Shown one piece after another: positions 37,301-40,942 of a DNA stretch of 46,468 nucleotides. Made by a program: the position numbers and the translations under genes. The stretch covers positions 1 to 46,468 of the forward strand of contig UQXG01000001.1 in assembly GCA_900544945.1 (NCBI GenBank), read 5' to 3'. Source of the stretch: an uncultured Eubacteriales bacterium (lineage in GTDB: Bacteria; Bacillota; Clostridia; Oscillospirales; Oscillospiraceae). The notes below the pieces were generated by a model, which was not told the origin of the DNA, searched no databases, and worked only from the letters and a program-made list of their open reading frames with translations. Within the stretch, counting starts at the first letter, position 1. Each line of letters opens with the position of its first letter.

Positions 37301-39052
37301 ATGGCATTTCCGGAGGCCTTTCTGGACGAGCTGATTGCCAGAAATCCAATTGAAGATGTGGTAAGCCAATATGTGAACCTGAAACGCTCCGGCTCCAATC
37401 TGTTTGGCCTGTGCCCCTTCCATGGGGAGAAAACCCCCTCCTTTTCCGTTTCCCCGGATAAGGGAATCTACTACTGCTTCGGCTGTCACAAGGGCGGCAG
37501 CGTCATTAACTTCGAGATGGAAATTGAGGGCCTGAGCTATCCGGATGCCGTCCGGGCACTGGCCAAACGGGCAGGGCTGGAGGTTCCTGAGGACGAGCAG
37601 TACCAGTCCCGGTATCGCCAGCAGGAGCGGCTCTGGGCTCTCCACAAGGAGGCCGCCCGATTCTTTCACAGCCGGCTTTATGCCCCTATCGGGGCAAACG
37701 CCCTCCAATACGCCGCAGGCCGGGGAATGCCCAAATCCATTCTGACAAAATTCGGTATCGGCTATGCCCCGGACAGCTGGACGGATCTGGTAGACTACCT
37801 GCGAAGCAAGAACTATACCGATCAGGAGCTTCGGGACTCAGGGCTGGTAACGGTTTCTCAAAAGAACGGCAATCTCTTTGACCGGTTCCGGGATCGGCTG
37901 ATGTTCCCGATTATCGATGTCCGGGGGAATGTCATCGGCTTTGGCGGCCGGATTATGAACAGCAGCGACAAGTCAGCTGCCAAATACTTAAACTCCCCGG
38001 AAACCCTGATTTTCAATAAGCGAAAAAACCTCTTTGCCCTGAATCTGGCGAAAAAAAGCAAGCTGGGCTACTTAATCCTGGTGGAAGGGTACATGGATGC
38101 CATCGCCCTGCATCAGTACGGCTTTGACTGTGCGGTGGCGTCCCTGGGTACGGCTCTGACCGAGGACGGCGCAAATTTGCTGTCCCGGTACACCGAGCAG
38201 GTGGTGCTCATCTACGACGGCGACGAGGCCGGACAGAACGCCACCCAGCGAGCCATTCCCATTCTGGAAAAGGCTGGCCTTCAGGTGAAGGTGCTGAAAA
38301 TGCGGGATGCCAAGGATCCGGACGAGTATCTGAAAAAGTTCGGCGCCGACCGGTTCCGGATTCTGCTGGAGGAATCGGCTAACCGGGTGGAATACCAGCT
38401 GAACGCGATTCTGAAAAAATATGACCTCCGGGACGACGAGCAGAAGGTGCAGTACCTTCAGGAATCTGCCGGACTGATCGGTTCGCTGAGCAGTGCCGTT
38501 CAGCGGGAGGTCTACGGCGGTCGGGTGGCGGAGGCCGCGGGCATCAGTGAGGATGCCATGCGTCTGGAAGTGAATCGGGCACTGAAGCGTCGTACTTATC
38601 AAGAGAAGAAAAAGCAGGAAAAGATCGACCTGTCTCCTGCCCGGAGTTTGCAGCCAAAAGAAAAATCTATCCGCTACAGCAATCTCCGTTCGGCCAGAGC
38701 CGAGGAAATGATCATTGCCCAGGTGCTCCGGGAGCCGGCACTGTTTGCCCAGATTCCGGATTTGCAGCCGGAAATCTTTTCCTCGGAGTTTCTGGGTCGA
38801 GCCTTCCGGCAGCTTCGGGACCGTTATCACCTGGGGCTGGACGTGAGCCTTGGGGGACTTTCGGACTTTACCGCCGAGGAAATGTCCCATCTGGCGGGAA
38901 TTTCCCAGCAGCAGGGGCCGGTGAATGAGCGGAGCCTGCTGGACTGCGCCAACATCATCCGGGAGGAATACCAGAAATCCCAGACCAAAACCGAGGACGA
39001 TCTTATGCGTTTTCGGGAAAAATTGCAGAAAAGCAAAGGAATCAAAGCATGA
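37301..39052 (+). CDS. dnaG: DNA primase
   Basis: CPFHGEKTPSF..CFGC Zn finger, KYLNSPET, EGYMD, YDGDEAG and KDPDE. Confidence 0.98.
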   Translation: MAFPEAFLDELIARNPIEDVVSQYVNLKRSGSNLFGLCPFHGEKTPSFSVSPDKGIYYCFGCHKGGSVINFEMEIEGLSYPDAVRALAKRAGLEVPEDEQYQSRYRQQERLWALHKEAARFFHSRLYAPIGANALQYAAGRGMPKSILTKFGIGYAPDSWTDLVDYLRSKNYTDQELRDSGLVTVSQKNGNLFDRFRDRLMFPIIDVRGNVIGFGGRIMNSSDKSAAKYLNSPETLIFNKRKNLFALNLAKKSKLGYLILVEGYMDAIALHQYGFDCAVASLGTALTEDGANLLSRYTEQVVLIYDGDEAGQNATQRAIPILEKAGLQVKVLKMRDAKDPDEYLKKFGADRFRILLEESANRVEYQLNAILKKYDLRDDEQKVQYLQESAGLIGSLSSAVQREVYGGRVAEAAGISEDAMRLEVNRALKRRTYQEKKKQEKIDLSPARSLQPKEKSIRYSNLRSARAEEMIIAQVLREPALFAQIPDLQPEIFSSEFLGRAFRQLRDRYHLGLDVSLGGLSDFTAEEMSHLAGISQQQGPVNERSLLDCANIIREEYQKSQTKTEDDLMRFREKLQKSKGIKA

Positions 39053-39921
39053 CACAAAGTGTGGATACAGAAAAAAACCTTCCGGTGAGCTCCGGCGAGG
39101 ATGATATGAGCCAGTTCCTACGGGAGATTCGCCAGTATCCCCGGCTGAACCCGGAGGAGGAAAAAGCGCTGGCCCGCCGATGCGCCGCCGGAGACGAGGA
39201 AGCCATCCGGCAGATGGTCAATTCCAACCTGCGGCTGGTGGTGAGCATCGCCCGGGAGTACGCGGGGCGGGGAGTCGCCCTTCTTGACCTGATTCAGGAA
39301 GGAAGCATCGGCCTGCTGACGGCAGCCAGAAAATTCGACTATACCATGGACTGCCGGTTTTCCACCTACGCCACGAAGTGGATTCGCCAGGGCGTGACCC
39401 GGTGCCTCATCAACCACGGCAGTCCCATCCGGGTGCCTCTGCATACTGCGGAGAAAATGCGGGCGGTGGCGGCGGCCAAGAACGCACTGACCCAGGAAAC
39501 CGGTCAGGAGCCTACCACCGCCCAGGTCGCCCGGCGGTGCGGCCTTCCGGAGCAGCGGGTGAAGGAGCTGATGCTCCTGACCCCGGACGTGTGCTCTCTG
39601 GATGTGCCCACGGGAGAAGGGGACGACGGAGTCCTGGGCAATCTGGTGGAGGATTCGCTGTCCCCTCAGCCCTATCAGGAGCTTGTGCGCCAAGAGTTGG
39701 AAAACGCCATTGTCCAGCTCCTTTCCACTTTGAATCCCCGGCAGCAGCAGGTGCTGCGGCTTCACTTCGGCATGGAGGACGGGGTCTGTCATTCCTTGGA
39801 GGAAATCGGCAAGCAGCTGGGCATTTCCAAGGAGCGAGTCCGACAGATTGAGCGGCAGGCCATGGACAAGCTGCAAAAAAGCGGACAAAGCCTGGGATTG
39901 GAGGACTTTTTGAATGAATGA
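39049..39921 (+). CDS. RpoD-related sigma-70 factor lacking region 1.1 (group-2-like)
   Basis: NLRLVVSIA, DLIQEG, RFSTYATKWIRQ, IRVPLH, SLDVP and LEEIG...SKERVRQIE. Confidence 0.9.
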   Translation: MTQSVDTEKNLPVSSGEDDMSQFLREIRQYPRLNPEEEKALARRCAAGDEEAIRQMVNSNLRLVVSIAREYAGRGVALLDLIQEGSIGLLTAARKFDYTMDCRFSTYATKWIRQGVTRCLINHGSPIRVPLHTAEKMRAVAAAKNALTQETGQEPTTAQVARRCGLPEQRVKELMLLTPDVCSLDVPTGEGDDGVLGNLVEDSLSPQPYQELVRQELENAIVQLLSTLNPRQQQVLRLHFGMEDGVCHSLEEIGKQLGISKERVRQIERQAMDKLQKSGQSLGLEDFLNE

Positions 39922-40942
39922 ACTGGAATTTTCCTTTGAGCCGGATCCGGTGGACGCATTCCTTTCCGGCCTGAAAACGGGAGATCGGGTAGCTGCGTCC
40001 CGCCTTCTGACGCTGCTGGAAGGGGAGGACACCGAGACTCTGGAGAACGTTTTGCAAGAGCTGGAAACCGCCGGGGTAACGTTGGAGATTGACCTTCCCA
40101 AGACCCACGGCACCGGCGAGGCCGCTGCCCGTCTGCGTCAGGAGGAGCTTCTGGCGGCAGAGGGACTGAATCCCGGCCTTATGGAAGAAAGTGACCCTTT
40201 GCGGATGTATCTGGAGGAGCTGGCAGGCGTTCCCGCCTTTGGAGATGAGGCGGTTCTTGCCGCCCAGTGCGCCGAAAAGGCCGGTGGGGAAGAGCAGCTG
40301 GCAAATCTGGGCCTTTCCCGGGTCATCGAGCTGGCACAGAACTATGTGGGTTACGGCGTGCTTCTGATGGATTTGATTCAGGAGGGCAGTCTGGGTCTCT
40401 GGCAGGCCATTCAGTCCTACTGTGAGGGGGTCTATGCCGATCACCGGGATCGGTGGATTCGGTTTTATCTGGCCCGGGCGGTGATTTTACAGGCACACGC
40501 CAGCGGCGTGGGGCAGAAAATGCGCCGTGCCATGGAGGACTATCGGCAGATTGACGAGCGGCTTCTGGCCGAGCTGGGACGGAATCCCACTCTGGAGGAA
40601 ATCGCGGAGCAGCTGCATATGTCCCCGGAGGAGACGGAGGCCGTCAAAAAAACGATCGAAAACGCCCGCCTGGTTGACCGGGTGAACTGTCCGGAGGAGC
40701 CGGAGGACAGCCAGGAGCAGACCCAGGCGGTGGAGGACACGGCGCTGTTCCAGATGCGCCAGCGCATCGGAGACCTGCTGTCCGGTCTGGAGGAGACGGA
40801 TGCCCGGCTCCTGACCTTGCGCTTCGGCTTGGAGGGTGGCAAGCCCCGTACTCCGGAGGAAACAGGCAGACTGCTGGGCCTGACACCCCAGGAGGTGGTT
40901 GCCCGGGAGGCCGCCGCCCTGAGCAAATTGAGAAAGGGATAA
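39914..40942 (+). CDS. Degenerate RpoD-derived sigma-70-like protein
   Basis: DPLRMYL, DLIQEGSLGL, LGRNPTLEEIA and LRFGL..ALSKLR are retained. Regions 2.3-2.4 and 4.2 have diverged. Confidence 0.85.
   Translation: MNELEFSFEPDPVDAFLSGLKTGDRVAASRLLTLLEGEDTETLENVLQELETAGVTLEIDLPKTHGTGEAAARLRQEELLAAEGLNPGLMEESDPLRMYLEELAGVPAFGDEAVLAAQCAEKAGGEEQLANLGLSRVIELAQNYVGYGVLLMDLIQEGSLGLWQAIQSYCEGVYADHRDRWIRFYLARAVILQAHASGVGQKMRRAMEDYRQIDERLLAELGRNPTLEEIAEQLHMSPEETEAVKKTIENARLVDRVNCPEEPEDSQEQTQAVEDTALFQMRQRIGDLLSGLEETDARLLTLRFGLEGGKPRTPEETGRLLGLTPQEVVAREAAALSKLRKG

Follow-up and report, generated by a model that had tools for sequence, protein, structure and literature searches.

Two overlapping, divergent sigma-70 paralogues behind dnaG in the uncultured genus Faecousia/CAG-110, one of them a candidate pseudo-sigma

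What takes the place of the housekeeping sigma factor when the gene directly behind dnaG is not a canonical sigA? The question is raised by a stretch of 46,468 nucleotides (contig UQXG01000001.1 of assembly GCA_900544945.1; hereafter the window, meaning the whole stretch analysed) from a bacterium of Faecousia/CAG-110, an uncultured genus of the Oscillospiraceae. In this window dnaG is followed by two sigma-70 paralogues, which we call S1 and S2. At all 35 dnaG-linked loci compared from other genera of the family (selected as best sigma matches, not randomly), the gene after dnaG codes for a SigA of full length whose DNA-reading residues are invariant. This agrees with the preliminary description of the window, which named sigA as the normal successor of dnaG. 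The features on which the argument depends are as follows.

37301-39052, + strand: dnaG, DNA primase of 583 amino acids (Pfam Zn_ribbon_DnaG, DNAG_N, Toprim and DnaB_bind)
39049-39921, + strand: S1, sigma-70 paralogue of 290 amino acids without region 1.1, regions 1.2-4.2 intact
39900-39904, + strand: GGAGG Shine-Dalgarno sequence of S2, within the 3' end of S1 (direct sequence reading)
39914-40942, + strand: S2, full-length sigma-fold protein of 342 amino acids that comprises regions 1.2, 2.1-2.2, 3.1 and 4 and an acidic domain resembling region 1.1
40947-41627, + strand: cmk, cytidylate kinase (Pfam)

The sigma pair and the genuine SigA

The S1 start codon overlaps the stop of dnaG (ATGA), and the S1 and S2 genes overlap by 8 bp, with GGAGG placed 9 nt 5' of the S2 ATG as read directly from the sequence. 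The tandem, coupled arrangement noted in the preliminary description is therefore present. The GGAGG falls in the codons for GLEDF, the conserved C-terminus of S1; since these codons double as the S2 ribosome-binding site, the stretch is doubly constrained.

As the preliminary description had claimed, neither gene is a canonical sigA. Against the Firmicute RpoD equivalog model (PRK09210/NCBIfam NF006666, 370 positions, cut-off 572 bits) S1 scored 273.1 bits over model positions 98-370 and S2 scored 133.9 bits over positions 44-358, both below the cut-off. Both proteins passed the sigma-70 superfamily model TIGR02937 (cut-off 42.9 bits), S1 with 124.1 and S2 with 46.8 bits. The RpoS and SigB models gave S1 250 and 244 bits, respectively, under the cut-off in both cases. 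Pfam assigned regions 1.2, 2, 3 and 4 to S1 and gave weaker matches to regions 2 (partial), 3 and 4 in S2. Apart from that generic superfamily, S1 and S2 matched no curated family of NCBIfam or Pfam above its cut-off.

The preliminary description had left two options for the housekeeping role, a true SigA elsewhere or the pair acting in its place. Using the RpoD model, we searched the window's own genome (2.13 Mb in 208 contigs, 97.6% complete) and found a canonical SigA of 378 amino acids on contig C121. It scored 509.5 bits over model positions 4-368, which is full length yet under the 572-bit cut-off, and it carries all the canonical motifs. Because this full-length SigA exists, the first option stands and the replacement of SigA by the pair is rejected. 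Across a sample of 50 other species of the genus, SigA of the C121 type is 84-97% identical and present in 47; the three species without a match are represented by genomes that are 66-77% complete. Next to the C121 sigA lies a gene for a translational GTPase, which looks lepA-like by eye from its sequence, with Pfam giving only EF-Tu-type GTPase domains. No lepA-like gene was found within ~2.5 kb of the unlinked SigA of other genera, so that this synteny is not common to them.

Two further observations concern the sigma complement. One species of the genus carries two tandem canonical SigA copies (G200:C23:12455-13597 and 13795-14928), 92% and 88% identical to SigA of the window's genome. The latter genome also holds four more sigma-70-family matches, on contigs C77, C14, C187 and C42, with 27-104 bits on the RpoD model; these are presumably other alternative sigmas.

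DNA-reading and core-binding residues of S1 and S2

We compared 14 promoter-reading and melting positions, which show little or no variation among the family's 77 canonical SigAs examined; the E. coli residue numbering and the assignment of these positions as promoter DNA contacts are ones that we take to hold here. S1 of the window keeps 11 of the 14, the changes being W433K, R584K and K593Q. Its alignment begins at region 1.2 and the auto-inhibitory region 1.1 is not present. Both properties had been seen in the preliminary description. The same picture holds for 50 S1 orthologues. Y430, W434, R586 and Q589 are kept in all 50, Q437, E585 and R588 in 48 each and H455 in 43. The changes too are fixed (W433K in 45/50, R584K in 50/50, K593Q in 45/50), and the motifs RFSTYATKWIRQ and SKERVRQIE vary little or not at all among these orthologues. 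S1 thus has the structure of group 2 sigmas, namely regions 1.2, 2, 3 and 4 together with near-primary DNA-reading residues, and S2 does not. Judged by its residues, S1 is most likely a lineage-specific, group-2-like alternative sigma acting at SigA-like -35/-10 promoters. The altered melting wedge (W433K, the first Trp of TWWIRQ) may change how S1 forms open complexes.

In S2 of the window only one of the 14 positions is kept, along with DLIQEGxxGL and LRFG. Its 50 orthologues keep 0-4 of the 14, the deepest branches of the genus included. Moreover, the replaced positions vary among species: Y430 has become H in 24 orthologues and is Y in 9, with other residues in the rest; R584 is P in 22 and A in 16; R588 is V in 20 and L in 12. 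Some unfavourable changes are fixed, namely R586E (44/50), R451G (48/50) and K593A (40/50). The mean net charge of region 4.2 falls from +3.0 in SigA and +1.8 in S1 to -0.2 in S2. The S2 sigma finger (region 3.2) carries a deletion and is shortened, without a consensus.

The positions expected to hold the core are fixed. In region 2.2, D403, the leucine and Q406 are found in 50/50 orthologues and E407 in 49/50; in region 4.1, R and G of LRFG are found in 50/50. A594 and R599 too are present in 50/50 each. According to the canonical sigma contacts, which we assume to apply to S2, DLIQEGxxGL of region 2.2 docks on the beta' clamp helices and LRFG of region 4.1 on the beta flap. Further conserved motifs of S2 are DPLRxYL (region 1.2), ELGRNPTLEEIA (region 3.1) and AVEDTAxFQ.

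At the N-terminus, S2 residues 1-90 have a net charge of -13 (genus median -11), and hhalign aligned S2 21-341 with SigA 26-366 at a probability of 99.9%, region 1.1 included. The N-terminal alignment and the acidic residues 1-90 indicate that S2 retains a homologue of region 1.1. An AlphaFold model built from the orthologue alignment (mean predicted local distance difference test score, pLDDT, 87.3) has a complete sigma fold with the N-terminal domain. In a Foldseek search with this model SigA chains ranked first. By a separate comparison, the closest solved relative of S2 is B. subtilis SigA (PDB 7ckq_F, E 4e-35), matched over nearly the whole length.

The preliminary description had spoken of a 1.1-like N-terminus and core-binding motifs combined with lost DNA-reading residues, and of a possible pseudo-sigma. 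The first point is borne out, and the second fits the pattern of S2: the core anchors are invariant, and the DNA-reading positions are lost and drifting. We use pseudo-sigma for this sequence pattern (core anchors kept, DNA-reading positions lost and unconstrained) as a class proposed here, not an established family. S2 is most likely such a sigma-derived protein, one that would bind the RNA polymerase core without reading or melting promoters. Another suggestion, that the pair had divided an ancestral function between its members, does not fit, since the DNA-reading set is kept by S1 alone and none of it by S2, leaving no shared-out function. S2 as a decoy belonging to S1, the alternative suggestion, is a hypothesis.

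Distribution, ancestry and selection

An S2 orthologue is present in 49 of the 50 sampled species of the genus, at 34-72% identity, the sole miss being a 66%-complete genome. No internal stops occur among the 50 S2 matches, and all 50 full-length orthologue rows have intact open reading frames (ORFs) of 319-351 amino acids. In an alignment of 28 species 35 columns are invariant and 28 more are nearly so. The order dnaG-S1-S2-cmk is conserved across the genus, and so are the junctions: the dnaG/S1 stop/start overlap is found in 39/41 loci, the S1/S2 overlap in 46/50, and cmk follows within 50 bp 3' of S2 in 37/47. An apparent S1-S2 fusion in one genome (G057, open frame of 631 amino acids) was rejected, as the genes are in different frames with an overlapping stop/start, just as in the window.

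Outside the genus the pair was not detected. We searched 150 other genomes of the family, representing 134 genera; one of them belongs to the window's genus. An S2 orthologue was absent from the 149 genomes of 133 other genera, and the sole match (56% identity) was the same-genus genome. The other matches to the S2 query in this sample (30-35% identity) were each genome's own SigA. Likewise, S1 at E <= 1e-85 was found in 0/149 genomes of the 133 other genera, with the same-genus genome as the sole match. A profile of 28 S2 orthologues was then compared with 1.84 billion representative proteins. It gave ~60 near-full-length matches of ~340 amino acids at 265-503 bits, and proteins of canonical SigA length started only at ~213 bits. 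Because the ~340-residue matches stand above the proteins of SigA length, S2 forms a discrete family. No source gave a name to S2 relatives among the 120 matches listed.

From what did the pair arise? The best S2 matches from other genera are full-length SigAs directly after dnaG in 28/28 loci. We also considered 19 further loci from genera with two SigA-like genes, comprising seven dnaG-linked and 12 unlinked copies. These dnaG-linked copies are 50-56% identical to the C121 SigA, the unlinked ones 73-82%. As a side observation, a subset of the family's genera has two canonical SigA genes, dnaG-linked (50-58% identity to the C121 SigA) and unlinked (73-82%), with DNA-reading residues intact in both. 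In a quick maximum-likelihood search with 89 sequences and Shimodaira-Hasegawa approximate likelihood-ratio test (SH-aLRT) support, SigA of the genus nests in the unlinked-SigA clade of other genera (support 100). S1 and S2 form one monophyletic group each, with stem lengths of 1.42 and 2.03, both long, and their subtrees match in topology. The split between {S1,S2} and all canonical SigAs has a support of 89, a value to be read with a long-branch warning in such a quick search. At positions that are otherwise invariant, S1 and S2 have derived states in common; N409S, for instance, is found in S1 (45/50) and S2 (38/50) and in 0/77 canonical SigAs. The shared derived states and the genomic position suggest that the dnaG-linked sigA duplicated in tandem after the unlinked paralogue had taken the housekeeping role.

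Selection was assessed by the ratio of nonsynonymous to synonymous substitution rates (dN/dS, Nei-Gojobori method, NG86) for 406 pairs of 29 genomes holding all three genes; it was finite in 390 pairs for SigA, 367 for S1 and 354 for S2. The median was 0.08 for SigA, 0.20 for S1 and 0.27 for S2, these ratios being rough as dS is near saturation. Per-domain values were pooled over the less saturated pairs (65/1225 for S2, 179/1225 for S1), and this choice of low-dS pairs pushes them upward. They were below 1 in every domain of S2, lowest in region 4 (0.32) and highest in region 3.2 and the N-terminal domain (0.55), and amounted to 0.17-0.42 in S1. SigA, S1 and S2 are all under purifying selection. 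With dN/dS well below 1 and 50 intact ORFs neutrality is untenable. A strain-specific, neutrally evolving pair, which would have spoken against the module postulated in the preliminary description, is thus contradicted by the genus-wide occurrence, the intact ORFs and the dN/dS values.

Traces of expression were found in contigs from the RNA libraries of two studies (runs X1 and X5), which match the locus at ~96-99% and cover parts of S1 and S2. The S1/S2 junction is bridged by an X5 contig (39731-40038) and the S2/cmk junction by an X1 contig (40650-41097). These bridging contigs hint at co-transcription of S1, S2 and cmk, with DNA carry-over in the libraries being possible.

Proposed role of the pair and its genomic setting

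The observations can be combined into a scenario whose early steps concern the ancestor of the genus. Housekeeping transcription would have passed to the second, unlinked sigA paralogue, represented here by the gene on C121. The dnaG-linked ancestral sigA would then have duplicated in tandem and the copies diverged. S1 presumably dropped region 1.1 and kept the promoter-reading apparatus, with W-to-K fixed at the first Trp of TWWIRQ. S2 would have kept both main core anchors (regions 2.2 and 4.1) within an entire sigma fold, along with its acidic domain of region 1.1, and lost the residues for -10 reading and melting and for extended -10 and -35 reading, its sigma finger being shortened. Such a protein would most likely bind core without promoter-specific initiation, thereby acting as a sigma competitor or a parking factor. 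Coupled translation of both proteins from the dnaG message would link the dose of one to that of the other, and both to the primase operon. On balance we favour this combined reading, in which a group-2-like sigma is paired, at a coupled dose, with a core-docking competitor or parking factor that does not read promoters. Core binding by S2, its functional loss of DNA reading, the competition and the order of duplication are what we infer from the sequences. We hold more tentatively a stronger form, according to which S2 would represent a new class of regulator: a chromosomal full-length sigma paralogue that sits on the sigma site of the core, blocks the DNA channel with region 1.1 and, produced in a fixed ratio with S1, sets the amount of core left to SigA and S1. 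That the retained acidic region 1.1 of S2 keeps the DNA channel occupied is speculation.

Several points weigh against the combined reading. The constraint on S2 is the weakest of the three genes (dN/dS 0.27 overall, 0.32-0.55 by domain), with ratios that are rough near dS saturation. The {S1,S2} grouping depends on long branches at its SH-aLRT support of 89, and the quick tree is compatible with either the dnaG-linked or the unlinked paralogue as the parent of S1 and S2. Moreover, W433 is kept in 18/50 S2 orthologues, W434 in 17/50 and Q437 in 18/50. Sigmas of groups 3 and 4 read DNA via other residues, and the loss of canonical residues is not proof of lost DNA binding.

In the strongest competing explanation S2 is a genuine alternative sigma that acquired a novel promoter specificity through residues other than those of SigA, so that the pair would be two alternative sigmas. 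The full sigma fold with all four domains, the purifying selection and the conserved helix-turn-helix scaffold of region 4.2 (consensus LGLTxxEVxxREaAALaKLR) would all suit such a protein, as would the retention of W433, W434 or Q437 by some orthologues. However, in a sigma with a regulon of its own the reading residues should be fixed, as they are in S1 and SigA, whereas the base-contact positions 430, 433, 434, 437, 584, 585, 588 and 589 are the most variable ones in S2 and the buried or core-facing ones are fixed. R586E in 44/50 orthologues and the nearly zero charge of region 4.2 would disfavour binding to the DNA backbone, and the sigma finger is short and has no consensus. We therefore regard this explanation as unlikely. 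A partner other than core is still less probable for S2. Its sigma domains could bind S1, SigA or some regulator, making it an anti-sigma-like or adaptor protein, for which the tight translational coupling, the co-inheritance with S1 and the retained acidic region 1.1 domain might be cited. Yet its most conserved residues are the ones by which canonical sigmas hold on to the beta' clamp helices and the beta flap, as we take these contacts to be. Least probable of all is a decaying, functionless duplicate kept open by its place in an essential operon. Such decay would fit the drifting DNA-reading segments of S2, whose dN/dS is the highest and whose identity (34-72%) is the lowest among the three genes, but it is hard to reconcile with intact ORFs in 50 rows of 319-351 amino acids despite near-saturated synonymous divergence, with dN/dS <1 in every domain, with 35 invariant and 28 near-invariant columns in 28 species and with the conserved Shine-Dalgarno sequence and overlapping start.

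How does the pair relate to known systems? With SigA/RpoD (group 1) of the dnaG-sigA operon of Firmicutes, S1 and S2 share the genomic slot and the fold; they differ in that S1 has no region 1.1 and S2 no DNA-reading residues, both scoring far under the equivalog cut-off. S1 resembles the group 2 sigmas (RpoS, actinobacterial SigB and HrdA-D, the cyanobacterial group 2) in its regions 1.2-4.2, in its near-identical -10/-35 reading residues and in having no region 1.1. In contrast to them it has an independent origin from a sigA duplicate in one clostridial genus and a fixed W433K. To our knowledge, group 2 sigmas have not been described as a trait of Firmicutes. SigO-RsoA of B. subtilis is a two-subunit sigma with one sigma-2-like and one sigma-4-like part, both required. 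Like S1 and S2 its genes are adjacent, co-expressed and sigma-derived; however, S1 and S2 each carry regions 2, 3 and 4, and the pair is not a split sigma.

For S2 the nearest precedent is gp33 of phage T4 (with gp55), a sigma part that grips the core without DNA reading. It is a small flap-binding stand-in for sigma region 4, does not itself bind DNA and works with the sliding clamp. However, gp33 is phage-borne and has no full sigma fold, whereas S2 is encoded on the chromosome and is a sigma paralogue of full length. Competition of sigmas for a limited core pool is a central idea in bacterial regulation, and it is known to be biased by anti-sigmas, 6S RNA and small ligands. 6S RNA and Rsd are factors that sequester RNA polymerase and alter the core or holoenzyme free for promoters. 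The outcome proposed for S2 is the same, but their chemistry and fold are different, and neither is a sigma paralogue occupying the sigma site. The term 'pseudo-sigma' was applied to fused gp55-gp33 in a review of T4 late transcription (PMC2988020).

A literature search, with supplementary tables outside its scope, found no such pair and no description of a chromosomal sigma paralogue without DNA reading; a preprint on Turicibacter lists three sigA paralogs without study of them. The module can thus be called undescribed, as the preliminary description had it, in that no curated NCBIfam/Pfam family, source name or paper was found for it. The pair is best seen as a variant within the sigma-70 paralogues, and there is a considerable chance that S2 represents a novel functional class. 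If so, S2 would provide sigma-site competition or RNA polymerase parking by a protein, without a described counterpart. A naturally evolved sigma that held core but did not read DNA would offer a clean new mechanism and a ready-made tool for probing sigma-core affinity, as well as a natural experiment that separates core-binding from DNA-reading residues. The locus also records the displacement of a housekeeping sigma, in which one paralogue takes over the role and the copy in the ancestral slot is free to diversify. All this is set in an abundant, never-grown gut genus of humans and livestock.

The surroundings of the pair suggest a long operon. Its further features are listed below.

34219-34244: strong terminator-like hairpin with an 11-bp stem and a T-run (predicted, pattern scan only)
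34272-34301, + strand: promoter-like site TTGTCC-18-TATACT with an extended -10 TG, beginning 28 nt after the hairpin (predicted, pattern scan only)
34310-35602, + strand: HflX-type GTPase (ORF and Pfam)
35607-36260, + strand: UPF0029/YigZ-like protein (ORF and Pfam)
36250-37263, + strand: HD-domain dGTPase-like phosphohydrolase (ORF and Pfam)
41624-43564, + strand: fusion of LytB/IspH with four S1 RNA-binding domains, ORF of 646 amino acids, its start overlapping the cmk stop (Pfam)
43546-43569, + strand: terminator-like hairpin with a T-run at the 3' end of the ispH-S1 gene (predicted, pattern scan only)

The three genes upstream of dnaG (34310-37263) are all on the + strand and are separated by short gaps or overlap. 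The hairpin and promoter-like site at 34219-34301, just before hflX, probably mark the start or boundary of the operon that holds the pair, and the hairpin at 43546-43569 is a possible end. No tRNA genes and no Rfam families at gathering score were found in the whole window (1-46468). The gene for the LytB/IspH-S1 fusion also lies 3' of cmk in the genus loci examined.

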